Positions 1 through 14,359 of a DNA stretch of 24,000 nucleotides are shown here, in pieces. How positions within the stretch are numbered: the first letter of the stretch is position 1; each line of letters opens with the position of its first letter. The position numbers were made by a program, and so were the translations under genes. Below the pieces are notes generated by a model that did not search any database, had not been told where the DNA came from, and worked only from the letters and a program-made list of their open reading frames with translations. The DNA comes from an uncultured Methanosarcinales archaeon (GTDB lineage Archaea; Nanobdellota; Nanobdellia; Woesearchaeales; GW2011-AR9). The stretch covers positions 371,529-395,528 of the forward strand of contig CAYFMJ010000001.1 of assembly GCA_964344235.1 (NCBI GenBank). Reading direction: 5' to 3'.

Positions 1-395
1 CGGAGATGAAAGTGGTTACCTAAGTTGATTGAATAGGTTTTGAAGATTTTGTCCAAGAAGTGTTTTTCAGGTTTTGAGTTCATGACGTTGAGGTATGTGA
101 TAGATTTTTTCCCAAATTGAATGTGGCTCTGATAAAAGATAAATGGTTTATGGGCACGTTTAAACGTGAGGATAACACCAATAATGATGACGACGAGAAG
201 AAGGCCCAGGCTGCTTATTTTAACGATGGTTTCCTCAGATGCAGTAAGGCTCAGAAGTGCGAGGTTTAGTAGAATACCAACGTAGAAAATAATGCCAAGG
301 ATGAGGAACGAGAGGATTTTTGGGATGACTGCTCGTGATTGTTTTTGTTGTAAAATGTATAATGGTTTCTGTTGTGGTGTTGTGGGGGGTTGCAT
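1..395 (-). CDS. Membrane protein, truncated by the window edge (N-terminus at 395)
   Basis: Hand translation of the minus strand from ATG (393-395) stays open to position 3, about 131 codons. It is absent from the supplied track, presumably because it has no in-window stop. Sequence: MQPPTTPQQKPLYILQQKQSRAVIPKILSFLILGIIFYVGILLNLALLSL...ISSLGLLLVVIIIGVILTF..., with two clear hydrophobic helices. Confidence 0.45.
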   Translation of the reverse strand, partial: MQPPTTPQQKPLYILQQKQSRAVIPKILSFLILGIIFYVGILLNLALLSLTASEETIVKISSLGLLLVVIIIGVILTFKRAHKPFIFYQSHIQFGKKSITYLNVMNSKPEKHFLDKIFKTYSINLGNHFHL

Positions 396-445
396 GTGTG
401 TAAGGAAGAAAAAGAGGTTTATATGTTTTTGGGAGAAGTGAGAAA

Positions 446-531
446 TGGGCCCGCCCGGACTTGCAAAGAATTCTTGCACCGGGGATCCCCGCCAAGTCAA
501 GGCGGTATCATAGCTACTAGACCACGAGCCC
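446..531 (-). tRNA. tRNA-Val(GAC)-like gene with a 13-nt insertion in the T-loop (possible non-canonical intron)
   Basis: The reverse complement folds as acceptor GGGCTCG/CGGGCCC, D-stem GTCT/TGAT, and anticodon stem CCGCC/GGCGG with loop TTGACTT. It continues with variable GGATC and T-stem CCCGG/CCGGG. The T-loop is 20 nt (TGCAAGAATTCTTTGCAAGT, plus coords 459-478) instead of 7. Deviations are U37, no GG in the D-loop, and no encoded CCA. Confidence 0.5.
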
Positions 532-554
532 AGGATTTTGTGGGGATTAGGGTA

Positions 555-569
555 ATTTATTAATATTAT
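555..569 (+). promoter_or_regulatory. TATA-box-like element for the methyltransferase gene
   Basis: aatttattaatatta is centred about 26 nt upstream of ATG 588. No SD is present, consistent with a leaderless archaeal transcript. Confidence 0.45.
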
Positions 570-587
570 GTTGATTTTTAGAGAATA

Positions 588-1238
588 ATGAAGAGAATGG
601 ACGCAGAAACGGAATTCTTGAGTGGGCTGATTGAGTTACAGTATGGAGTTGATGTTGAAGATAAGTTGCGTGATGTGGCCGATAATGTCGGATGGGTAAG
701 GGGTTGGCCAAAGAATAAGAAAGCGTTTTGGAATGCCGAAGCGTTCATGTGGGGTAGAAAAATTAGTAAGGAGAAACGAGCACTGATCGCAAATGAGTTG
801 CGTTTTTTGGAAGGAGAAAAGAATTTAGACGTAGGGTGTGGGGCGTTTAGTTATGTAAAAGAAAGTGTGGGATTTGATATATCATCTAAAATGCTTGATT
901 TTAATGACACTATCGGTGAGAAAGTTGTCGGTGATTTAGAGAAAGAGTTGCCGTTTGCCTCAGAGAGTTTTGATTCTGTCACTGCAGTGTTAGTGGTTAA
1001 TTATGTAAAGAATGTTACTGGTTTGTTTTGTGAGTTACTGAGGGTTTTGAGGGATAGAGGGGTGTTTGTGATGGTTTTATCCAGCAAAAAAATTAATGAA
1101 TGGCAGAGGCAGAAAGAAGTGACTAGTTTGCATTTTGGAGAGTGGAAAGATGTTTTGGAAAGGAGTGGTTTTACTGTTGAGGCGTATGAAGAAGAGAATG
1201 TATGGTTTTTTAGGTGTAGAAAAGAAAAAAGTTATTAA
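588..1238 (+). CDS. Class I SAM-dependent methyltransferase
   Basis: 216-aa ORF. It has the motif I LDVGCGAFSY followed by acidic D (GFDIS), and a later VLVVNYV / GVFVM pattern typical of Methyltransf_11-type Rossmann methyltransferases. Confidence 0.85.
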   Translation: MKRMDAETEFLSGLIELQYGVDVEDKLRDVADNVGWVRGWPKNKKAFWNAEAFMWGRKISKEKRALIANELRFLEGEKNLDVGCGAFSYVKESVGFDISSKMLDFNDTIGEKVVGDLEKELPFASESFDSVTAVLVVNYVKNVTGLFCELLRVLRDRGVFVMVLSSKKINEWQRQKEVTSLHFGEWKDVLERSGFTVEAYEEENVWFFRCRKEKSY

Positions 1239-3647: not shown

Positions 3648-5774
3648 ATGGCTGATTTTGGTGATGGATATTATATGCCGATGGACCGTGGACATGCACA
3701 TGATCATGGACATCATGGTTTTCCAGGGGTTTCAGGGAAAGCAACAAGTGATGTAGGGATTTCTATCGGTGATTTAGGAACAAGTATGGGTTTAGGTCCG
3801 GTGCCGAATGTGCAAACTGTTAAATCGCGTCTTCATCCCGGAGCGAAGAAGTTAGAGTTCGTATTTTTTGGTCGAGGAAAAGGTTCTGCTCAGGGACATA
3901 CGCCAGGACAGTATGGGTTTAAGCAACGACAAGCATTAGTAGAGATTGGAAGATCAAATAAAGTTGATTTTACAACGCACTCTGCTGTTGGCATTATGGG
4001 TTTAGCAGGGATGGATCAGCAAGGGAATTTCTCAAAAGCAAGTAAGCAGGATTCTCTATTGGAGTTAAAGCGAGCAGTTGAATTCGCTGCAGATGTGGGA
4101 CAGGGAGGGCCCGTTGTTGTTCATACTGGGGAGTTTGACAGGCCAATTGTTGACGCTGAGTGGAACCAACAGGAAGGCGATCCGTACAAAGGGAAGTTTA
4201 CTCGGTATGCTGATGAGGAAGGAAGAACGGAGTATAGGGTTGTTGATAGAAGAACTGGAAGACTGGTACAGTCAGCTCAGAAGAATAGAAAAGTTTCCCG
4301 GCCAGTATGGAATGTTGCTACAGAGGGAGAAGAGTATGTCGACTTTGATGGGGTGACAAAAAAGGGTGAGAAAGGAAAAAAAGTGTATTTAGATTATGAG
4401 GGAAACCGCGTACAGCCAGAGTTACGAGTTCCGAAGTTTAACAAAGATGATCAAAAATTCGAAGTGGTGCAGCTAGGGTGGGAAGATCTTGTTGAGGAAG
4501 CAAAAGAAATGACTACCCGTGCTAAAGAGGTGTGGAAAGATTGGAAAGCTGGTAGAATTAGTAATAAAGAGTTTGAAAAATCGTATTGGGCTCGATTTAG
4601 GGATGCGAAGAGTGTTAAAGATGTTAACGTCCGGGCTGAGGAAGCGTATATTATCTCAACATTAGAAACCAATGCTGCTAGGGACAGGGGTTGGGCGTTG
4701 TATTATGGGGGGAATTTTGATGATTATATCAAAAAAATGAAGAAGTTTAAGAAAGCGCTGGCGTTTTATGAGCAATTGGAAGAAGCAACTGATGAAGAAG
4801 AGAAGTGGCAATTGAAGCGCGAAATTGGCGAGTTGCGTTTACCGAGTGGGTTGGTGCCGCCTGATTCTAAATTTCCCTCTGAAATTTTGAGAGAGCAGAT
4901 TAAAGAAGTTGATCGGCAAATGAAATATTCGCGTGAATCTTCAGCAGCACAATGGGCGCAATCAGAAGAAGCGGTGGAACAGATCAGGAATATTGAGAGT
5001 GCGGAGACGTATGCAATTAAAGAAGCGTATGATGCGTATGCACAATCAGCAATTAGTGCAATGAGACAGAGTGATGCGTTAGAGAAGAAAGGTAAGTTGA
5101 AGAAGCCGATTGCAGTTGCTCTTGAAAATTTATTCCCAGAAGCATATGGTTCACACCCTGATGAGTTAAAAAGTTTAGTGCTTGGGAGTCGGGAGAGGAT
5201 GGTTGAGTTGCTGAAACAGCAAGGAATGGCTGAAGAAGCGGCTAAGAAGAAAGCCACAGCGCACATTACTGCAACATTTGATACCGGGCATCTTAACATG
5301 TGGCGGAAGTATTGGCGAGGGGATCCAAATAAAAGTATCAAAGAAAATGATAAAGCATTTGATAAATGGATGTTAGATAAAGTTGGAGAGCTAGCAAAGG
5401 ATAAGATTATTGGCCACGTACATATTGATGATAATTATGGGTATCATGATGATCATCTCGCTCCGGGTGAAGGGAATACGCCGATTAAAGAGATGGTGAA
5501 AGTGTTAAAAAAGAACGGGTACAAAGGAGAATTAATTGTGGAGCCCGGTGCAGATTATTATACAGATACGGGAAATGGCTTTGCGTCACTTGCGAAGACA
5601 TGGAAACATTTTGATCTACCAGTCTATGGACGAGGAGGGTTGTCTGGACAAGGAGCAACGTGGGGGAATGTGCAGTATGGTTTCTTTGGACATAATCAAC
5701 CTGCATATTTCGTGTTTGGAGCATATAGCCCGTCGGAAGAATGGACGTTGTGGTCAGGAGTGCCGTTGGAGTAA
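3648..5774 (+). CDS. Xylose-isomerase-like TIM-barrel (AP endonuclease 2 / sugar phosphate isomerase-epimerase superfamily) protein with a large internal insertion
   Basis: The N-terminal part (LEFVFFG...HSAVG...AVEFAADVGQGGPVVVHTGEF) and C-terminal part (AVALENLFPE...FDTGHLNMW...IIGHVHIDDNYGYHDDHLAPGEGNTPIKEMVKVLKKNGYKGELIVEPG) match the family motif order (H..G, E, D.GH, HxHxxD, DxHxxxG, E). They are separated by about 320 charged/helical residues. The N-terminus is His-rich (DRGHAHDHGHHG). Confidence 0.8.
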   Translation: MADFGDGYYMPMDRGHAHDHGHHGFPGVSGKATSDVGISIGDLGTSMGLGPVPNVQTVKSRLHPGAKKLEFVFFGRGKGSAQGHTPGQYGFKQRQALVEIGRSNKVDFTTHSAVGIMGLAGMDQQGNFSKASKQDSLLELKRAVEFAADVGQGGPVVVHTGEFDRPIVDAEWNQQEGDPYKGKFTRYADEEGRTEYRVVDRRTGRLVQSAQKNRKVSRPVWNVATEGEEYVDFDGVTKKGEKGKKVYLDYEGNRVQPELRVPKFNKDDQKFEVVQLGWEDLVEEAKEMTTRAKEVWKDWKAGRISNKEFEKSYWARFRDAKSVKDVNVRAEEAYIISTLETNAARDRGWALYYGGNFDDYIKKMKKFKKALAFYEQLEEATDEEEKWQLKREIGELRLPSGLVPPDSKFPSEILREQIKEVDRQMKYSRESSAAQWAQSEEAVEQIRNIESAETYAIKEAYDAYAQSAISAMRQSDALEKKGKLKKPIAVALENLFPEAYGSHPDELKSLVLGSRERMVELLKQQGMAEEAAKKKATAHITATFDTGHLNMWRKYWRGDPNKSIKENDKAFDKWMLDKVGELAKDKIIGHVHIDDNYGYHDDHLAPGEGNTPIKEMVKVLKKNGYKGELIVEPGADYYTDTGNGFASLAKTWKHFDLPVYGRGGLSGQGATWGNVQYGFFGHNQPAYFVFGAYSPSEEWTLWSGVPLE

Positions 5775-5797: not shown

Positions 5798-5865
5798 CAA
5801 AATTGAGCGGAAGGTGTTATGCCCTGGGGACTTTACGTCCCCACGAGGAGCGTAGCGACGAAGAG
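5798..5865 (+). repeat. Linker module copy A (conserved structured inter-cassette element)
   Basis: Sequence: caaaattgagcggaaggTGTTATGccctGGGGACtttacGTCCCCacgagGAGCGTAGCGACGAAGag. It aligns with copies B and C. The hairpin is 5826-5831/5837-5842. An outer helix gttatg (5816-5821) with cgtagc (5851-5856) is possible if G-U pairs are allowed. Confidence 0.8.
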
Positions 5866-5984
5866 TTTTTGAACTACCGTGCATTGACACTGGCGCCGAT
5901 TAACACTTACAGTTTTTAGTTTTAGTATTTCAAAGAAGGGGGAGTTCCGTTAGTTTTAGTTACACATTAAAGGGGGGACAATTT
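5866..5984 (+). repeat. Cassette 1 left inverted-repeat arm
   Basis: Five perfect blocks occur in nested order with the right arm: tttttgaactacc 5866-5878, actggcgcc 5889-5897, gattaacact 5898-5907, gggggagttcc 5938-5948, ggggggacaattt 5972-5984. Confidence 0.85.
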
Positions 5985-5986
5985 AG

Positions 5987-6748
5987 TTACTTGAAAGGTT
6001 TACTTTGTTTCCAGAACCATTCAAAATAATTTCTAAAAGAATCAGCAACTTGTTGACTTGTTATTTCAAAGGCAAAGGGCATTTCACCCTGAGGGATTGC
6101 AATGAGAACCACATCTTTGTAGATCATTACCCAAGAGGGAGATTCAATATTGAGGGGCATTCTTCTGGCTTCGCAATATTTGTAACTATTTCTGTTCTTT
6201 AAGTTTTCATTAGTTACATCAGGATGATAAAGCATTCTGCATTTGATTTTTTCTTTTGCCAAAATCTGATGGTGCTTTTTCCAATACGCATGATGAAAGC
6301 CCGGTTGTTGCGGAGGCAACCCGTACAAAACAACCTCATCTCCCTGTTTCAATTTTTGATAGCGGTTTTCGTAAGCAGTCATTAATCCTCTAAATCCCTC
6401 ATACATATTAGCCTCACTTTTTTTGGCTAACTTTTGTTTAAGGATTAACTGGGGAATCATCTCTTGGATTTTCGCTTTATTTTGTTGAATCTCTTTTTCT
6501 CTAGTTTCAACATAATCCAAGAGTGTATTTGGCGGTGCTGCTTGGTAATACTTAGTTTTTTCTTTGGTCACATAGGAAACAAGCCCTTTCTTGATTAGTT
6601 TTTCAAGAATCCTATAGATGATTGATCTATTTACTCCAGATTTTTCAAGAATAGGGCCGATTGTTGACGAACCAAGCTCTAGCAAAGCCAAGTAAGTTCT
6701 TGTTTCACCATCAGTTAATCCTGCTTCTTGAAGGGCTGAAATGTCCAT
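5987..6748 (-). CDS. TrmB-family transcriptional regulator
   Basis: 253-aa ORF. The N-terminal winged HTH is typical of TrmB (LQEAGLTDGETRTYLALLELGSSTIGPILEKSGVNRSIIYRILEKLIKKGLVSY) and is followed by a C-terminal effector-type domain. Confidence 0.8.
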   Translation of the reverse strand: MDISALQEAGLTDGETRTYLALLELGSSTIGPILEKSGVNRSIIYRILEKLIKKGLVSYVTKEKTKYYQAAPPNTLLDYVETREKEIQQNKAKIQEMIPQLILKQKLAKKSEANMYEGFRGLMTAYENRYQKLKQGDEVVLYGLPPQQPGFHHAYWKKHHQILAKEKIKCRMLYHPDVTNENLKNRNSYKYCEARRMPLNIESPSWVMIYKDVVLIAIPQGEMPFAFEITSQQVADSFRNYFEWFWKQSKPFK

Positions 6749-6867
6749 GCTTTGTTTATGATTGGTTGTTTTATTTAAATCTTTCTAATTAGCATACTAG
6801 TGGTGGTATGATAAAATTATTAAAGAAAGTAGTTGCTACTGTTAAATAAATAACTTAGGAATTAAAA

Positions 6868-7317
6868 ATGACAGAAGAAAATAATGGGCTTGACGAGAGA
6901 TTACTAACACAAGTACAGGCAATTAGCAGATTAGTAATTCCAGGTGTACAAACTGAATTTTGCAGGGGGGTTCCAAAGGAAGGCAGTACTAATGAATTTA
7001 GTCCAAGCACTAACATTCTTATTGAAAACTGTCTGGGTAGAACTGTTTTTGCATCATATATCCACACTCCGTATGGTAAGAATCAATTTAGGATGTGGTT
7101 AGACAATCGTCCAAAAATGTTGGTACCCGCTAGAGATCATTACGATCGTGGAGGCAGTTCAAGAGAAGGCAGCCACTGGTTTTTTGAAGCTACTGGACTA
7201 ACCGAACCAGTACAATCAATAAGAGATCTGTTGACGGATGGTTGGGAGAAAAAAGATGAATACAGCCATAGGGCAACTGCTATTCTTTACGCAAAAGGCG
7301 GGTTTTCGGATGAATAA
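6868..7317 (+). CDS. Hypothetical protein (149 aa)
   Basis: The ORF is divergent from the TrmB gene across an AT-rich region (6749-6867) with TATA-like words. No family is recognised. Confidence 0.65.
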   Translation: MTEENNGLDERLLTQVQAISRLVIPGVQTEFCRGVPKEGSTNEFSPSTNILIENCLGRTVFASYIHTPYGKNQFRMWLDNRPKMLVPARDHYDRGGSSREGSHWFFEATGLTEPVQSIRDLLTDGWEKKDEYSHRATAILYAKGGFSDE

Positions 7318-7344
7318 TCAAGATGAAACTAGGAGCTAAATAAA

Positions 7345-7887
7345 ATGGCAAAAATTGAAAGCATTGAAAGAATACTTGTTGTTGAGGATACTGAACAACA
7401 TATTCAGGCAGCTAGAGAACAACTTGGTGAGTATGAACTTACAATGGTGGGAGATTTCGAAAGATTCCTCGACGCAGTGAAAGGTACTTGTTTTGACGCG
7501 CCGAATAATAGAATGAAGCGTAATTATAACTTTCCTGAAGATCCAAAATTTGATGCTGTACTTAGCGATATGAATTTTCCTATGAATGTAAAAGACTTGT
7601 ACAGTGGTTACAATTCCCCTGGTGTTTTAGGATATGCAGTAGGGATGATCTGTTCACAAGCATCAATTCCATTAGTAGGAATTGTGTCTGCAACAAACCA
7701 CCATGAAGGATCTGTTGCAGGAAGTCTAATGTACTTGAAAGCAACAAGACACGCTGATAGAATTTTTCAAGTAGGAGATACACGAATAATGTATTTTGAT
7801 GATGACTCTTTTGGCACAAGGGATCAACCTAAGAGATGGGATAAAGCATTAGAATGTTTAAATGCAGGAACCAGAAATATTGATTAG
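7345..7887 (+). CDS. Flavodoxin-fold protein resembling a stand-alone CheY-like receiver domain
   Basis: An SD aggag lies 9 nt upstream. The pattern is RILVVEDTE (beta1 acidic pair), FDAVLSDMNFP (beta3 Asp), IPLVGIVSAT (beta4 Ser/Thr), YLKA (beta5 Lys), with an insertion between beta2 and beta3. The assignment is by pattern only. Confidence 0.55.
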   Translation: MAKIESIERILVVEDTEQHIQAAREQLGEYELTMVGDFERFLDAVKGTCFDAPNNRMKRNYNFPEDPKFDAVLSDMNFPMNVKDLYSGYNSPGVLGYAVGMICSQASIPLVGIVSATNHHEGSVAGSLMYLKATRHADRIFQVGDTRIMYFDDDSFGTRDQPKRWDKALECLNAGTRNID

Positions 7888-8031
7888 AAATTGTCCCCCC
7901 TCTTTTTTTTGTTTTTAGGAACTCCCCCGTTAAAGTTTTAGTGTTAATCATAGTTTTAGTTCTTAGAAAGGCGCCAGTTAAGATTGTTTAATTTAGCGTT
8001 AGCGTAGTATCCAAAATAGGTAGTTCAAAAA
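7888..8031 (+). repeat. Cassette 1 right inverted-repeat arm
   Basis: These are exact reverse complements of the left-arm blocks in mirrored order: aaattgtcccccc 7888-7900, ggaactccccc 7918-7928, agtgttaatc 7940-7949, ggcgccagt 7970-7978, ggtagttcaaaaa 8019-8031. Confidence 0.85.
7901..7916 (+). terminator. Oligo-T archaeal terminator candidate
   Basis: tcTTTTTTTTgTTTTT lies immediately after the stop at 7887. Archaeal termination typically uses T-runs on the coding strand. Confidence 0.5.
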
Positions 8032-8090
8032 TTGGGCATATACGATGTTATGTGCCCCCGACTTCACGTCGGGGTGCGTAACGACCGAAG
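8026..8090 (+). repeat. Linker module copy B
   Basis: Sequence: caaaaattgggcatataCGATGTTATGtgccCCCGACttcacGTCGGGgtGCGTAACGACCGAAG. Positions 8047-8082 fold as one 15-bp hairpin (4 G-U pairs, C8059 bulged, loop 8063-8067). Confidence 0.8.
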
Positions 8091-8103
8091 GGAGTGGAGC
8101 AAG

Positions 8104-8165
8104 TATTTGAGTTGCGTCATAGAAAGGGGCTTGGCATAGTTTTGGTTTTTAGAGGGGCTTAAGTT
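8104..8165 (+). repeat. Cassette 2 left inverted-repeat arm
   Basis: Blocks: tatttgagttgc 8104-8115, ggggcttggc 8126-8135, agaggggcttaagtt 8151-8165. Confidence 0.85.
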
Positions 8166-8501
8166 TTACTTTTTGAAAATGTTTACTAAAGAATCCTGAA
8201 TCTCTTTGATTTTGTTTTCTTTCAAAGTGCCAATTTTTGAAGAAATGATTGAAACATCGGCAGTGAAAAGCTTGTTTGGTCTTACAAGACTTGATACTGT
8301 CAATTTTCCAGTTTGAAAATTTTCTGTTTCAAGAGGAACTGCATATTCATCGCTACGAGCAGAAGCAGTTGTTATCTGTGCAAGAATTAAATCGTCACCT
8401 GTGAGATTTGCCACCACTACTGCTGGTCGTTTCCGTGATGAACTTAGATCAGAGAAAGGAAAAAGAAGAACAACGACATCTCCTCTTACAAGTGTTTCCA
8501 T
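8166..8501 (-). CDS. mazF: PemK/MazF-family type II toxin (endoribonuclease)
   Basis: 111 aa. RGDVVVLLFPFSDLSSSRKRPAVVVANLTGDDLILAQITT matches the MazF/PemK N-terminal SH3-like signature. It overlaps the upstream antitoxin gene by 16 nt. Confidence 0.85.
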   Translation of the reverse strand: METLVRGDVVVLLFPFSDLSSSRKRPAVVVANLTGDDLILAQITTASARSDEYAVPLETENFQTGKLTVSSLVRPNKLFTADVSIISSKIGTLKENKIKEIQDSLVNIFKK

Positions 8502-8734
8502 GCTTCATCCTCCTCTTTAGTAAGCCAATCTTTTGCTAAAGATTTTTCACTGGCTAAAGCTGGAAACATTTTTTCATTGAATTGTTTTAACGGTCGTAGT
8601 TCTACTTTATTATCAAAGGCTAAAATTGCTACTTTTGTTCCCTCTTTGAATCCCTCAAGTTTTCTAATGTTTTTTGGGATAGCAATTTGACCTTTCTCTG
8701 TTACAGTTGCAGTTCTCATTTCGATTAATGGCAT
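8486..8734 (-). CDS. mazE: AbrB/MazE/SpoVT-family antitoxin
   Basis: It carries the swapped-hairpin motif TVTEKGQIAIPKNIRKLEGFKEGTKVAILAFDNKVELRPL. I prefer ATG at 8732-8734 (SD aggtga 5-6 nt upstream) over the GTG at 8743 used in the track. Confidence 0.8.
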   Translation of the reverse strand: MPLIEMRTATVTEKGQIAIPKNIRKLEGFKEGTKVAILAFDNKVELRPLKQFNEKMFPALASEKSLAKDWLTKEEDEAWKHL

Positions 8735-8742
8735 TTTGATCA

Positions 8743-8768
8743 CCTACTTAGTAATTCTTACAAGTAGG
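8743..8768. promoter_or_regulatory. Palindrome at the mazE 5' end (candidate autoregulatory operator)
   Basis: In cctacttagtaattcttacaagtagg, cctactt (8743-8749) pairs with aagtagg (8762-8768). It overlaps the SD complement tcacct (8740-8745). Confidence 0.4.
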
Positions 8769-8896
8769 ATAAGTAAGAAATATATAAATTTTTCTGTATT
8801 TATGTTGTTACTAAATGATGAATAAATCAAGGAAAGATTTATAAATGATTAGCCGTTTCTAAGACTATAATCATTAAAATCAAGAGGTCAATAAAA

Positions 8897-9199
8897 ATGT
8901 CAGAAAATAAATTAGTATTTGCTCGTGCATATTGGATGAATAGTCCATTTGAAGAAGGACAAGCAGGATTCTTTGTAGGAGATCCAAGTAATCCATCTAA
9001 AGGATCATATGAAGGTAACAATAATTTAAGGTTTGCTGTTGCTAAAGTTGCTGAAAGAAGTTCTGAATTATCTACAACTGTTGATACAGAATTTGAAGGT
9101 CTAGCAAGAGATGGCAAAATGACTTTATTGTTGCAACCAATTGAGCAAGATACTGCTAAATACAAAAGTGTTGATGAATTAGCACGCATGTATCTTTAA
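8897..9199 (+). CDS. Hypothetical protein (100 aa)
   Basis: The ORF has an SD-like agaggt 9 nt upstream and is divergent from mazEF. No family is recognised. Confidence 0.6.
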   Translation: MSENKLVFARAYWMNSPFEEGQAGFFVGDPSNPSKGSYEGNNNLRFAVAKVAERSSELSTTVDTEFEGLARDGKMTLLLQPIEQDTAKYKSVDELARMYL

Positions 9200-9204
9200 A
9201 ATTA

Positions 9205-9216
9205 TTTTTTCTTTTT
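9205..9216 (+). terminator. Oligo-T terminator candidate
   Basis: TTTTTTcTTTTT lies directly after stop 9199. Further T5 runs are at 9231-9235 and 9237-9240. Confidence 0.45.
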
Positions 9217-9347
9217 AACTTAAGCCCCTCTTTTTCTTTTTACATTTTAGTTTTTAACATAGAGCCAAGCCCCATCAATAATAGAATTTCTGCATTCAGT
9301 TTATAGTCAGTAAACAGAAGCAGAGTAAACATCAAGCAACTCAAATA
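9217..9347 (+). repeat. Cassette 2 right inverted-repeat arm
   Basis: These are exact reverse complements of the left-arm blocks in mirrored order: aacttaagcccctct 9217-9231, gccaagcccc 9264-9273, gcaactcaaata 9336-9347. Confidence 0.85.
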
Positions 9348-9409
9348 TTGCACATAACGATGTTATGTTGTGGGAGGTTCATCCTCCCAGCCGAGCGTTA
9401 GCGAGGAAG
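9342..9409 (+). repeat. Linker module copy C
   Basis: Sequence: caaatattgcacataaCGATGTTATGttgtGGGAGGttcatCCTCCCagccGAGCGTTAGCGAGGAAG. The 10-mer cgatgttatg (9358-9367) is identical to 8043-8052. The hairpin is 9372-9377/9383-9388. Confidence 0.8.
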
Positions 9410-9443
9410 TTTAGAAATCAGGAACAAGCTTTACCCCCGCCAT
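9410..9443 (+). repeat. Cassette 3 left inverted-repeat arm
   Basis: Blocks: tttagaaatcaggaa 9410-9424 and ttacccccgccat 9431-9443. Confidence 0.7.
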
Positions 9444-9485
9444 TGTAGAATTTCACTGCCATACTCATCTTTTACTATTTTTTAG

Positions 9486-9499
9486 TAATATTTTTAAAG
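9486..9499 (+). promoter_or_regulatory. TATA-box-like element
   Basis: taatatttttaaag is centred about 29 nt upstream of ATG 9522. Confidence 0.4.
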
Positions 9500-9521
9500 A
9501 AAGAGGTTTCTCATACTATTT

Positions 9522-10040
9522 ATGCAACAATTACTAACATACAGAGAATTTCCATTTGATCATTCATTATTTTTGGATAAAGGTATTAATGCAGGAGATT
9601 TGCATGTTACTCTTTATGATGAAATGGGTTGTACTCAAGATGGTGACCAAAAGTTAAGTGAAGTAAATAGAAGAGTTCATAATGCTGCTGTAAGAAGTTT
9701 AGTTGGTAAATTTGCTGGTGATTTAGGACAAAGAGTTTCTTTTGGTGTTTCTAGATTTTTAAAAAAAAGTAAACGTGCTAGTCCTGATTATTCATTAAGT
9801 GAAGTTGCAGATGTTCTTGTTGGAGCAGGAGCGTATGAATCAAGAGAAGCAGCATTAGAACATTTACCTGAATTTTTAGGAACCTCTTTAAGGACTGATG
9901 GAAAACGAAAATATGCTAACTCAATGTGGACGGGAGTACAAACTAGTTTAGATATTGAAGTAAAAGATGAGTGGCATTGGTTTGGAAGAATAGATTCTGA
10001 TAGTGGTGAACAGAAGGTATATTTACATAAGCAAAAATAA
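9522..10040 (+). CDS. Hypothetical protein (172 aa)
   Basis: This is the only long ORF of cassette 3. No family is recognised. Confidence 0.6.
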   Translation: MQQLLTYREFPFDHSLFLDKGINAGDLHVTLYDEMGCTQDGDQKLSEVNRRVHNAAVRSLVGKFAGDLGQRVSFGVSRFLKKSKRASPDYSLSEVADVLVGAGAYESREAALEHLPEFLGTSLRTDGKRKYANSMWTGVQTSLDIEVKDEWHWFGRIDSDSGEQKVYLHKQK

Positions 10041-10044
10041 TTTT

Positions 10045-10091
10045 ATGGTGGGGGTTATTCAAGTTCTACGTCCTAATTCCTGATCTCTAAA
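10045..10091 (+). repeat. Cassette 3 right inverted-repeat arm
   Basis: atggtgggggtta 10045-10057 pairs with 9431-9443 (11 Watson-Crick pairs, 1 G-T, 1 mismatch). ttcctgatctctaaa 10077-10091 is the reverse complement of 9410-9424 at 14/15. The order is nested. Confidence 0.7.
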
Positions 10092-10156
10092 TTCAACATA
10101 CGGACTACTTAAGTGCACTTTGGGCTTAAGTAGTGAAATTCTTTGAATTCAAAGCC

Positions 10157-10250
10157 TCTACTCAATCCCATAACGCAAAAAACTGTTACTACTTTGCATG
10201 GAAATGTCTCACTACCCACTCGACAACCACGGGTAGAGTATATAAACGAG
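10157..10250 (+). repeat. Degenerate fourth linker-like module at the right edge of the array
   Basis: ctcaatcccataacg (compare ctcaaatattgcacataacg in copy C) ...gttac... is followed by the GC-hexamer hairpin ctaccc 10212-10217 / gggtag 10231-10236. The similarity to copies A-C is weak. Confidence 0.3.
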
Positions 10251-10407: not shown

Positions 10408-10444
10408 GTAAGATTTATAACCTCTTATTCTTTTCTTTTTATTG

Positions 10445-11008
10445 ATGAAAAAGAAGGTGACGAAGAGAACAGTTCGTAGGAAAGTTGTGAAGCGTAAGCC
10501 TGCTGCAAAAAGAGCTACGAGAAGAAAGAAAGTTGTTAGGAAACCGGTTCGGAAAAAGACAGTGAAGCGATCTGTTAAAAGAAAGCCCGTAAAGAAGAGA
10601 GCTGTGAAACGAAAAGTTCTTCACAAAAAACCGCCACAGAAAAGACGTGCGAGAGGATATATTCCGTTCGATGTTCTTGTCGATAAATTACAGCATTCTA
10701 AGAAGAAACAGAGTGTGCTTGATGTGACTGATTATTCTAAAGCCGTGAAGACTGTAAAGATGAAAGAATCGAAGGATTACATCCCAGTTTCACAGTTAGC
10801 AAAGCGGTTTGAGAAGAAACGAACACCAGAGTCGTATCGAAAGGAAATTAAGAAAAAGATGCGGAAAGGTTTATTGCATCGGATTAAAGATAAAGTGAAA
10901 AGAAAGAAGCCAGTTAAACGGCGAGTTGTGAAAAAGAAGAAAACTGTTTCCAAAAGAAAATCTGTTAAGGGAAAAGTAACGAAGAAAAAACCACGTAAGA
11001 AAAGATAA
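10445..11008 (+). CDS. Extremely Lys/Arg-rich protein, probable nucleic-acid-binding
   Basis: Both termini are KRK/VKRKP-type repeats. The centre has two copies of a [GD]-Y-I-P-x3-L motif ending in a K/R run (GYIPFDVLVDKLQHSKKK; DYIPVSQLAKRFEKKR). TATA atttataa (10413-10420) lies about 28 nt upstream of ATG 10445; the track start 10442 is TTG. Confidence 0.75.
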   Translation: MKKKVTKRTVRRKVVKRKPAAKRATRRKKVVRKPVRKKTVKRSVKRKPVKKRAVKRKVLHKKPPQKRRARGYIPFDVLVDKLQHSKKKQSVLDVTDYSKAVKTVKMKESKDYIPVSQLAKRFEKKRTPESYRKEIKKKMRKGLLHRIKDKVKRKKPVKRRVVKKKKTVSKRKSVKGKVTKKKPRKKR

Positions 11009-12303: not shown

Positions 12304-12748
12304 TGTTTTCGAGAATGAGGGATTTTTCGGTACAAATTTGTTCTGCATCAAAGAGAATAACTTTAGGTGTGATTTTGACTTGACGGATCGCTCCTGAGAC
12401 GGCAGCGTTGTAGTTTACTTGACCGAGATATGTTCCTGCTTTAGTCATTTTAGCATTATTTAATTCGAAAGTTTCTGCTTTATTTTGGCCAATGATGTTG
12501 ACAATAAGACCCTCTACAGGGATGTTAACGCCATTTTCTACCGTGAATTGAACTTTCTTTTGCGCGGTGTTGTAGCAGACTTGTTCTTGGTTTGAAATCT
12601 TTGCGAGTTTTAATCCAACGTCGATAGCACATTCCGCTTCTAATTCAACTTGTGCTCTCCCAAAATTCATAATTACCACTCCAAGCGCTACGGCGAATGA
12701 GATTAGGAGAAGTGTTGCAATAATGGGCGAGATCCCTCTTTTGTTCAT
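12290..12748 (-). CDS. Archaeal type IV pilin-like protein (class III signal peptide)
   Basis: The N-terminus MNKRGISPIIATLLLISFAVALGVVIM has a prepilin-peptidase-type K/R-G site followed by a hydrophobic helix. Its 3' end overlaps the ferredoxin gene by 14 nt. Confidence 0.8.
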   Translation of the reverse strand: MNKRGISPIIATLLLISFAVALGVVIMNFGRAQVELEAECAIDVGLKLAKISNQEQVCYNTAQKKVQFTVENGVNIPVEGLIVNIIGQNKAETFELNNAKMTKAGTYLGQVNYNAAVSGAIRQVKITPKVILFDAEQICTEKSLILENIRNC

Positions 12749-14240: not shown

Positions 14241-14359
14241 AGCCCCGGGCGAGAGTTGAACTCGCGACCTCCTGATATCTTACCATGCTTGTGCTCTATT
14301 GAAAACATAGCAGATAGATGGCTACAAGTCAGGTGCTATAGCCACTAAGCCACCGGGGC
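14241..14359 (-). tRNA. tRNA-Thr(UGU) with a 46-nt intron at the canonical 37/38 position
   Basis: The reverse complement reads GCCCCGG TG GCTT AGTGGCTA TAGC A CCTGA CTTGTA[46 nt]A TCAGG AGGTC GCGAG TTCAACT CTCGC CCGGGGC T. The intron is plus-strand 14277-14322. No CCA is encoded. Confidence 0.85.

Follow-up and report, generated by a model that had tools for sequence, protein, structure and literature searches.

A 24,000-nucleotide (nt) window of DNA from a metagenome-derived Woesearchaeota/Nanoarchaeota (DPANN) archaeon (assembly GCA_964344235.1, contig CAYFMJ010000001.1, positions 371,529 to 395,528 of the forward strand; "the window" below) carries, from position 5816 to about 10101, an array of three tandem gene cassettes that follow one common plan on the plus strand. 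DPANN archaea have genomes of ~1 Mb and a host-dependent lifestyle, and how they acquire and shuffle accessory genes is poorly understood. The array begins ~40 nt downstream of a conserved gene for a 708-amino-acid (aa) protein; in 36 related genomes the four genes that lie before the array keep their synteny, which ends exactly at the 3' end of the 708-aa gene. With a GC content of 0.36, compared with 0.40–0.41 in the flanks, and with this break in synteny, the array looks foreign and variable.

Each cassette opens on the left with GTTATG and three further nucleotides, which are followed by a 7-bp G+C-rich hairpin with a TTYAY loop and by a purine-rich tail that contains GCGTWRCGA and terminates in GAAG. 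After this left-end module (X1, X2, and X3 in the window) come a left arm, the cargo genes, a right arm, and a right end made up of TT, three nucleotides, and CATA(A)C. The GTTATG of the next cassette then comes after a 3-nt spacer, usually GAT, and the abutting cassette ends form a palindromic core (GCACATAA-CGATG-TTATGT), which is similar to the Xer/dif site and to the R-box of integrons. Every junction core has the same polarity, with CATAAC, spacer, and GTTATG followed by the hairpin and the tail, and the arms adjoin the stop codons of the cargo genes with gaps of 0–17 nt. The parts of the array and its surroundings are as follows.

Directly upstream of X1: chromosomal flank GGAAGGT.
5816–5865, plus strand: X1, left-end module of cassette 1 (covariance-model match of 38.3 bits; hairpin covariation).
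5816–5821 and 5822–5824: half-core GTTATG and cassette-specific CCC of X1.
5825–5843: X1 hairpin TGGGGAC/GTCCCCA with loop TTTAC.
5850–5865: X1 tail GCGTAGCGACGAAGAG.
5866–5984: left arm of cassette 1, helix strands A–E.
5985–7887, both strands: cargo of cassette 1.
5987–6748, minus strand: TrmB-family regulator of cassette 1.
6868–7317 and 7345–7887, plus strand: two uncharacterised open reading frames (ORFs) of cassette 1.
7888–8031: right arm of cassette 1, helix strands E'–A'; outer ~80 nt homologous to the right arm of cassette d2 in the related genome L212 (see below).
8032–8046, plus strand: right end of cassette 1, with TT, GGG (complementary to CCC at 5822–5824), CATATAC, and spacer GAT at 8044–8046.
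8047–8103, plus strand: X2, left-end module of cassette 2, with GTTATG, TGC, hairpin CCCCGAC/GTCGGGG, loop TTCAC, and a tail with GCGTAACGACCGAAGG.
8104–9347: arms and cargo of cassette 2, with orthologous cassettes in the related genomes L212 and L211.
8104–8165: left arm of cassette 2, with helices TATTTGAGTTGC, GGGGCTTGGC, and AGAGGGGCTTAAGTT.
8166–8501 (minus strand), 8486–8743 (minus strand), and 8897–9199 (plus strand): cassette 2 cargo MazF, MazE, and an ORF.
9217–9347: right arm of cassette 2.
9348–9361, plus strand: right end of cassette 2, with TT, GCA, CATAAC, and spacer GAT.
Right end of cassette 2 together with 9362–9370: dif-like palindromic core GCACATAAC-GAT-GTTATGTTG.
9362–9409, plus strand: X3, left-end module of cassette 3, with GTTATG, TTG, hairpin TGGGAGG/CCTCCCA, loop TTCAT, and tail GCGTTAGCGAGGAAG.
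9410–10101: cassette 3, with left arm 9410–9443 and right arm 10045–10091.
9522–10040, plus strand: cargo ORF of cassette 3, with its own promoter.
10092–10101: right end of cassette 3, with TT, CAA, and CATAC.
10102–10177, plus strand: degenerate terminal region with spacer GGA, probably a decayed cassette remnant or a terminal site.
10105–10133: short hairpin CTACTTAAG/CTTAAGTAG of the terminal region.
10167–10174: further CCCATAAC end in the terminal region.
10215–10246, plus strand: conserved 32-nt box with the TATA-like element CCCACTCGACAACCACGGGTAGAGTATATAAA, also found upstream of the L212 recombinase gene.

The arms of cassette 1 were the subject of an earlier, sequence-only reading, which described a pair of arms of 119 and 144 nt containing five perfect nested inverted blocks. 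The arm lengths are borne out (5866–5984 and 7888–8031), and the five blocks, listed below, are indeed perfect reverse complements, each of them occurring once in the window, and lie in collinear order, nested in mirror fashion. Only the paired length has to be corrected, from 56 to 57 nt, as the innermost block is 14 nt long.

5866–5878 with 8019–8031: block A, TTTTTGAACTACC, exact reverse complement.
5889–5897 with 7970–7978: block B, ACTGGCGCC, exact reverse complement.
5898–5907 with 7940–7949: block C, GATTAACACT, exact reverse complement.
5938–5948 with 7918–7928: block D, GGGGGAGTTCC, exact reverse complement.
5972–5984 with 7888–7900: block E, GGGGGGACAATTT, with pairing that extends to 14 nt (5971–5984 with 7888–7901).

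The spacers between successive blocks are unequal in length (10/40, 0/20, 30/11, and 22/16 nt) and lack complementarity, as had been described, and the cargo, estimated at ~1.9 kb on both strands, comes to 1903 nt. The name cassette 1 is likewise appropriate, since the two adjoining units (~8047–9361 and 9362–10101) are bracketed by arms of their own that differ from those of cassette 1. The complementarity was thought to be block-wise, in the manner of a long helix with internal loops rather than of a recent perfect duplication, and this agrees with blocks that are 100% Watson–Crick paired, with unrelated spacers, and with the compensating changes described below.

Complementarity of this sort could in principle reflect chance or low complexity in AT-rich intergenic DNA, given that the genome is AT-rich, that simulated windows reach a chain score of 37, and that one weak inverted chain at related loci (L029/L066) fell within coding sequence and was dismissed as chance. 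However, the collinear chain of inverted words in the window scores 57 against this maximum of 37, which was obtained from 30 first-order Markov simulations of the whole 24 kb, and the arms of cassette 1 co-fold far below shuffled sequences on both strands (–94.0 kcal/mol, z = –6.7, on the plus strand; –90.5 kcal/mol, z = –8.3, on the minus strand). The arms of cassette 2 (8104–8165 with 9217–9347) co-fold with z = –10.3 and those of cassette 3 (9410–9443 with 10045–10091) with z = –4.0. The architecture also recurs, with covariation, in three adjacent cassettes and in two other genomes, and the probability left to chance is negligible. An assembly artefact is excluded because nine contigs from other samples and assemblers (five other samples and a second assembler) are 99.8–100% identical to the window; the few single-nucleotide polymorphisms among them fall outside the arms, and the order of the cassettes is unchanged.

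The same plan is found in at least five additional cassettes of two metagenome-derived genomes, L212 and L211, whose contigs were reached through close MazF homologues. L212 (GCA_964460195.1) carries at least four of these cassettes on its reverse strand, with the junction cores CATAAT-GGC-GTTATG, CATAAC-GAT-GTTATG, and CATAAT-GTC-GTTATG, with the hairpins CCTGCAC/GTGCAGG and CCTCGGC/GCCGAGG, which both have TTTAC loops, and with tails that match those in the window. Each L212 cassette has its own arms (in one example four helices with a score of 54). Cassette d1 of L212 is the orthologue of cassette 2 in the window and shares its helices, and the framework of cassette d2 is homologous to that of cassette 1: helix strand E' is identical, helices A and B are recognisable, and the outer 80 nt of the right arms are ~75% identical. 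The cargo of d2, an Asp/Glu racemase and another ORF, is unlike that of cassette 1, so that one arm framework is associated with different cargo in two genomes. L211 contains the MazEF cassette again, together with a neighbouring cassette bounded by GTTATACGA...TCGTATAAC.

The helices of these cassettes covary. Six sequences of the X hairpin, taken from three genomes, are 100% paired, with double-sided changes at 7 of 7 pairs and no one-sided change, and helix A has double-sided changes in 10 of its 13 pairs among the three window cassettes, with the caveat that this comparison has three sequences, which were aligned by position. Where the frameworks of cassette 1 and d2 differ in helices A and B, the changes are largely compensated, and in the MazEF framework, compared across three genomes, the helices are invariant and the spacers vary, with the exception of helix A' in d1, which has two unpaired changes. 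These substitution patterns show the helices to be under selection for pairing. The helix pairs, 90-odd in number, are all Watson–Crick, with zero G–U pairs, and both strands are equal in folding energy, which argues for the pairing of DNA rather than of RNA.

This bears on the proposal that the arms are RNA processing stems: a long array transcript would fold so that every cassette is closed by its stem, and the splicing endonuclease or another RNase would cut at the base of the stem and free or circularise cassette RNAs. Stems that close 0.6–1.9 kb are typical of archaeal rRNA processing, in which long-range complementary segments likewise close a kilobase-sized loop, and a splicing endonuclease is to be expected in a genome with an intron-containing tRNA (window 14241–14359, minus strand; a long-intron gene with 56.6 bits against the Rfam tRNA model, which ARAGORN missed in bacterial mode). 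The plus strand alone also carries a U-rich loop motif, TAGTTTTRGT, of which the window has four copies (5917–5926, 5951–5960, 7951–7960, and 8137–8146, with a fifth at 7933–7942 that has one mismatch) against 0.18 expected; all lie in arm spacers of cassettes 1 and 2, and each is followed 7–11 nt downstream by a G-rich helix strand. One strict bulge-helix-bulge-like motif, probably due to chance, adjoins the inner side of helix A in cassette 1 (minus strand, 5879–5893 with 8006–8020) and includes two G–U pairs. Against this proposal, bulge-helix-bulge motifs (two 3-nt bulges and a 4-bp helix) between the arm regions are no commoner than in shuffled sequence in any cassette or on either strand, and none is found in cassettes 2 and 3, which leaves unsupported the suggestion in the sequence-only reading that the arms might be cut at such motifs. 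The lack of G–U pairs and the equal folding of the two strands also speak against RNA stems, as do cargo genes that lie on both strands with their own promoters, and the absence of an Rfam family or of a host or flanking RNA gene. Runs of T5–T8, which act as archaeal terminators, are present inside the arms and would stop transcription there. RNA stems would, moreover, leave the dif-like core, the matched ends, and the adjacent recombinase described below unexplained, and this proposal is quite improbable.

An Rfam search of the window and of 8 related loci, at gathering and permissive (E < 5) thresholds, returned no match in or around the array. Two further ideas about the X element were rejected: it is unlike the tRNA in the window, and ARAGORN found none, so it is not a tRNA-derived attachment site; and it does not encode a small peptide starting at the ATG of GTTATG, since the compensating hairpin changes would scramble the peptide sequence.

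The ends of the cassettes are informative about where exchange would take place. CATAAC and GTTATG are kept in nearly all cassettes, with variants in cassettes 1 and 3 (CATA(T)AC) and in the cassette labelled f0 (GTTATA/TATAAC). The 3 nt beyond the 6-nt core are complementary between the two ends of the same cassette in seven of eight cassettes, and at two of three positions in the eighth, whereas only 0–2 of the three match across neighbouring cassettes. As the ends are matched within cassettes and not between them, each cassette retains its own two half-sites, which would place the exchange point in the centre of the core. Ends matched in this way would be produced if a circular cassette carried a palindromic site and were exchanged within the bases at the middle of it.

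The core at X3, TTGCACATAA-CGATG-TTATGTTGTGG, resembles the E. coli dif site, GGTGCGCATAA-TGTATA-TTATGTTAAAT, the sequence of which was checked in MG1655, and the internal cores match the dif arms (GCNCATAA / TTATGTT) with 5 nt from CATAA to TTATG. The array in L212 ends in ATTGGACATAA-CTCTTA-TTATGTCCACT, an 11-6-11 site with arms that are symmetric at 10 of 11 positions and identical to the E. coli dif arms at 15 of 22. This terminal site lies 296 nt upstream of a gene for a 278-aa tyrosine recombinase, whose best matches are archaeal XerA proteins (NCBIfam XerA_Arch, 211.7 bits with a cut-off of 220; PDB 4A8E and 5HXY) and which reaches 203.6 bits, in two stretches, against the integron-integrase model TIGR02249 (cut-off 265). 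A second, shorter recombinase ORF, a fragment, lies on the opposite side of the array. The L212 enzyme may be either a housekeeping XerA, as in an exploitation of dif by integrative mobile elements exploiting Xer (IMEX), or a dedicated cassette integrase, as on an integron-like platform. A 32-nt box with a TATA element, which lies 27 nt upstream of the XerA-like gene in L212, is 28/32 identical in the window, where it lies at 10215–10246, 110 nt past the last cassette. No recombinase coding sequence is left in the window; with the promoter box kept and the gene absent, the window array looks like a platform that has lost its recombinase.

The best reading of these observations, with a probability of roughly 60%, is that the cassettes were inserted by a tyrosine recombinase and carry arms selected for their structure. 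On this reading, the arms of a cassette would be the halves of one long, interrupted palindrome, specific to that cassette, which was split by integration. That recombination occurs, which enzyme performs it, and what the arms contribute to it are points that we infer from the architecture. The cassettes would be inserted successively as circles, and might perhaps be excised again, by a XerA-family tyrosine recombinase acting in trans, with the crossover among the few bases at the centre of the core. A circular cassette would have its arms on both sides of the core, and these could fold into an interrupted hairpin or cruciform of ~330 nt with the core at its tip; for cassette 1, the predicted circle junction would join 8019–8046 to 5816–5843 (GGTAGTTCAAAAATTGGGCATATACGAT|GTTATGCCCTGGGGAC). 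Integration would split this palindrome and leave one half at each end of the cargo. In an integrated cassette, pairing between the arms might instead hold both ends close to each other and so bring the two junction cores together for excision. Our guess is that the arms would act as a structure-specific accessory in synapsis, in the presentation or regulation of the site, or in excision, in a manner similar to a folded attC site.

A rival explanation with the same terminal features in view is that the cassettes are non-autonomous transposons with terminal inverted repeats and passenger genes, similar to miniature inverted-repeat transposable elements, for which a DDE-type transposase would be supplied from elsewhere. 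A terminal inverted repeat of 9 bp, GTTATGNNN...N'N'N'CATAAC, bounds every unit, along with long sub-terminal inverted repeats, the abutted ends with their 3-nt spacers resemble the inverted-repeat junctions formed by IS3/IS30-like copy-out-paste-in elements, GAT lies on both sides of cassette 2, and related ends occur at another locus, L007/L050, around a MatE transporter gene and the 708-aa gene. Yet the triplets that flank the other cassettes for which both flanks could be compared differ (GGT/GAT, GAT/GGA, GGC/GAT, GAT/GTC, and GTC/TCT) and match only for cassette 2 (GAT/GAT), so there is no target-site duplication. In addition, only 6 nt of the ends are common to the cassettes and the arms are cassette-specific, which means that one transposase could not read them; no transposase is encoded in the window, L212, or L050; the cassettes are confined to a single tandem array in each genome, beside a tyrosine recombinase and a dif-like site; and no dispersed copies were found in ~1 Mb of related sequence. 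Transposition is therefore an unlikely explanation.

Inverted repeats around gene-sized segments are also found in invertible segments (invertons or shufflons), in which a recombinase flips the cargo to switch its expression, and the L212 enzyme has weak secondary matches to tyrosine recombinases, DNA invertases among them. The sites of invertases are, however, short, identical, and shared, whereas the arms described here are long, interrupted, and different in each cassette. A single orientation is found in all independent assemblies. The conserved core, moreover, is external to the arms, and its two copies at the boundaries of a cassette are direct repeats, an arrangement from which excision and not inversion would be expected. 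Inversion is accordingly very improbable.

Several observations weigh against insertion by a tyrosine recombinase. No recombinase gene is present in the window or in the ~4 kb upstream of it, and searches from the window ends yielded only short contigs. No mobility was seen: all contigs recovered from the project samples have the same cassette order, with no circle-junction or empty-site contig among them. The GTTG, TGGT, and GC skews keep their sign across the array, which places it away from a replication terminus; a chromosomal dif site at the window array was rejected for want of a skew inversion. The internal junction cores have a 5-nt centre, compared with 6 nt in dif and in the terminal site of L212, and the outermost half-sites in the window, to the left of X1 and to the right of cassette 3, are not dif-like. 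The strand-specific TAGTTTTRGT in the spacers is unexplained by this model, and a duplex palindromic core would not need arms. The family was found in only three or four genomes, and when 0.97 Mb of related loci were searched with a covariance model of the X element, the sole matches were the three copies in the window and one borderline, unrelated stretch.

That borderline match (L009, 1740–1960; E = 0.058 with the X-hairpin model) is a G+C-rich, apparently structured intergenic stretch in a related genome and resembles an unannotated RNA gene more than it does the end of a cassette. A scan of viral contigs for the core and tail pattern gave 120 random matches, none of them with the hairpin. 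The 708-aa gene was followed at 36 genome loci and 30 metagenome loci in search of an empty site; all of them lose synteny downstream of the gene, and the right flank of the array occurs in none, so that no empty site was defined.

The arm spacers depart from random sequence, and a second motif shares the directional character of TAGTTTTRGT. In both cassette 1 and d2, a GCGTWAGCG-like motif is common to the left tail and to the right-arm spacer beside helix A', in each case on the same strand. Motifs in direct orientation within a mirror-symmetric structure suggest a strand- or direction-specific reader.

The cargo differs in kind among the window cassettes, with a TrmB-family regulator and two ORFs in cassette 1, MazE/MazF and an ORF in cassette 2, and one ORF in cassette 3, and consists of genes that are typical of cassettes and exchangeable (MazEF, a regulator, and ORFans). 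A homologue of the cassette 3 gene (81% identical) lies in L079 between a PLD-like gene and the gene for ribosomal protein L15e, without arms, and the DNA homology to cassette 3 is confined there to the promoter and the ORF. The module of the TrmB-family, 180-aa, and 149-aa proteins is likewise found, with neither arms nor cores, in several contigs from other archaea. As the cargo is found elsewhere without the framework, the gene modules are ordinary ones, and the arms and end modules enclose them as an envelope.

In its working, the system is most similar to integron cassettes and to Xer-dependent elements or dif modules, yet it fails the defining features of each. IMEX and the dif modules of Acinetobacter lack a recombinase of their own, are bounded by dif-like sites, lie in tandem beside dif, and often carry toxin-antitoxin cargo (PMC5357621, PMC6449649, PMC13141974). 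The CATAA / TTATG arms of the cassette cores are also those of dif, and in L212 an 11-6-11 dif-like site, with an XerA-like gene nearby, closes the array. The internal cores differ, however, in having a 5-nt rather than a 6-nt centre, and all of them are direct, whereas the sites of Acinetobacter modules alternate (C/D, D/C). IMEX are located at the chromosomal dif site or terminus and depend on the Xer proteins of the host; the L212 array abuts its dif-like site and XerA-like gene, and the window array has neither a skew inversion nor xerA. To our knowledge, Xer-exploiting elements have been known only from bacteria, and no description of Xer-exploiting cassettes in archaea was found in the searchable literature; nor do we know of an IMEX or dif module with 60–140-nt cassette-specific complementary arms, a structure-conserved hairpin, or matched ends.

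The likeness to integrons lies in small cassettes that carry accessory cargo and are packed closely in tandem, with a tyrosine recombinase of the Xer/IntI clade nearby, in sites that keep their structure and complementarity while their sequence varies from cassette to cassette, and in AAC/GTT triplets, which take the form CATAAC/GTTATG here and RYYYAAC/GTTRRRY (R-box) in integrons. Arrays without an integrase also occur among integrons, and such clusters of attC sites lacking integrases (CALINs) are comparable to the window array, seen as a platform without a recombinase. Archaeal integrons and CALINs with canonical attC sites were reported in 2022 (Ghaly et al. 2022, PMC9668308). A scan of the four junction regions on both strands for AAC...GTT boxes that lie 50–150 nt apart and close a hairpin found no canonical attC site at the junctions. 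An attC site is a local hairpin of ~55–150 nt (R''-L''...L'-R'), whereas CATAAC and GTTATG are only 3 nt apart in the window, and the palindrome of a cassette is here split between its ends, so that exchange would take place at the middle, or tip, of the folded site and not close to the base as in attC. These cassettes, unlike those of integrons, have their own promoters and genes on both strands. An integron has an IntI integrase with an extra IntI-specific domain beside the array, together with an attI site; the L212 enzyme scores below the integrase cut-off and matches XerA best, the window itself being without a recombinase.

The attP site of lambda-type phages offers a further parallel, as integration leaves the arms of this ~300-bp composite site at opposite ends of the element and as GCGTWAGCG lies on both sides near the core, in direct orientation, in the cassettes. 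Lambda-type arms, in contrast, consist of repeated protein-binding sites with a shared consensus, which are not mutually complementary and are the same in all elements of one integrase. The system is a set of site-specific-recombination gene cassettes with an unusual split, structure-selected site, and it seems to be a relative, so far undescribed and archaeal, of the integron or the Xer-dependent cassette systems. We tentatively regard it as a possible, though not probable, DPANN counterpart of the integron, in which XerA-family enzymes would capture and release cassettes at a dif-like core, the split palindrome would be selected for structure, and the framework would serve as a reusable vector.

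If this holds, cassettes with dif-like cores beside an XerA-like gene would extend Xer-type gene capture to archaea, and the system would link the Xer and integron worlds. The covarying, cassette-specific arms and the single framework with different cargo would bear on the origin of integron cassettes and of structured sites. As the system is short and well defined, it would be directly testable with synthetic sites and one recombinase.

Looser relatives of the cassettes were found in L021 and in L007/L050. In L021, TCTAACGATGTTATG...CGAAGAG lies directly after the stop codon of the 708-aa orthologue, and the contig then ends. In L007/L050, GCGTTATG..CGAAGAG.. is followed by 111 nt of near-perfect arms and by ..CATAACGC; this inverted repeat (7920–8085 and 12324–12464; GAAGAG tail) brackets the MatE transporter gene and the 708-aa gene itself, and the element is either a young relative of the cassettes or the capture of a chromosomal gene. 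A separate, block-wise inverted repeat in L025, from a related archaeon (4518–4622 and 9848–9960), with six perfect blocks (77 nt) and equal-length mismatched patches of 3–7 nt, brackets 5.2 kb that include an XPD-like helicase gene and ends 40 nt before the 708-aa orthologue, without GTTATG/CATAAC ends. The L211 cassette bounded by GTTATACGA...TCGTATAAC (136–811, reverse strand) is a 670-nt imperfect palindrome with 11 collinear inverted blocks (121 nt), and an HD-domain ORF crosses its centre, which places complementary blocks within coding sequence.

The MazEF homologue P0024 (87% identity) has a housekeeping context without cores, beside a decayed inverted-repeat element. Downstream of an 87%-identical MazEF pair in L215 (8334–8620) lies an element of ~200 nt with direct repeats (GTACGAAGACTAG), with inverted arms that resemble helix A (TATTTAGTTC), and with a degenerate hairpin that has a TTTAC loop; it may be a decayed or cargo-less framework.

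The three-gene module of cassette 1 (window copy 5987–7887) also occurs in L084, L085, L086, and L087, which are unrelated archaeal contigs. In its layout, a TrmB-family regulator of 253–254 aa is divergent from a protein of ~180 aa; the ~149-aa protein is present in the window, in L085, and probably in L086, and none of the three proteins matches Pfam, PHROG, or NCBIfam. Directly after the array (window 10442–11008) lies an ORF for a 188-aa protein that is extremely rich in lysine and arginine and has no family match.

A recurrent intergenic element of Woesearchaeota often lies within 1 kb downstream of the 708-aa gene. It was seen at L012 12174, L015 3788, L016 12943, L029 3361, L038 16378, L052 3994, L057 21757, L069 12833, and L078 532, and is made up of an A-run, a covarying G+C hairpin, GAAGGTG, GGTGTTT repeats, and a TATA-like box. 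The GAAGGTG of this element is also present in the left flank of the window array (GGAAGGTG|TTATG).

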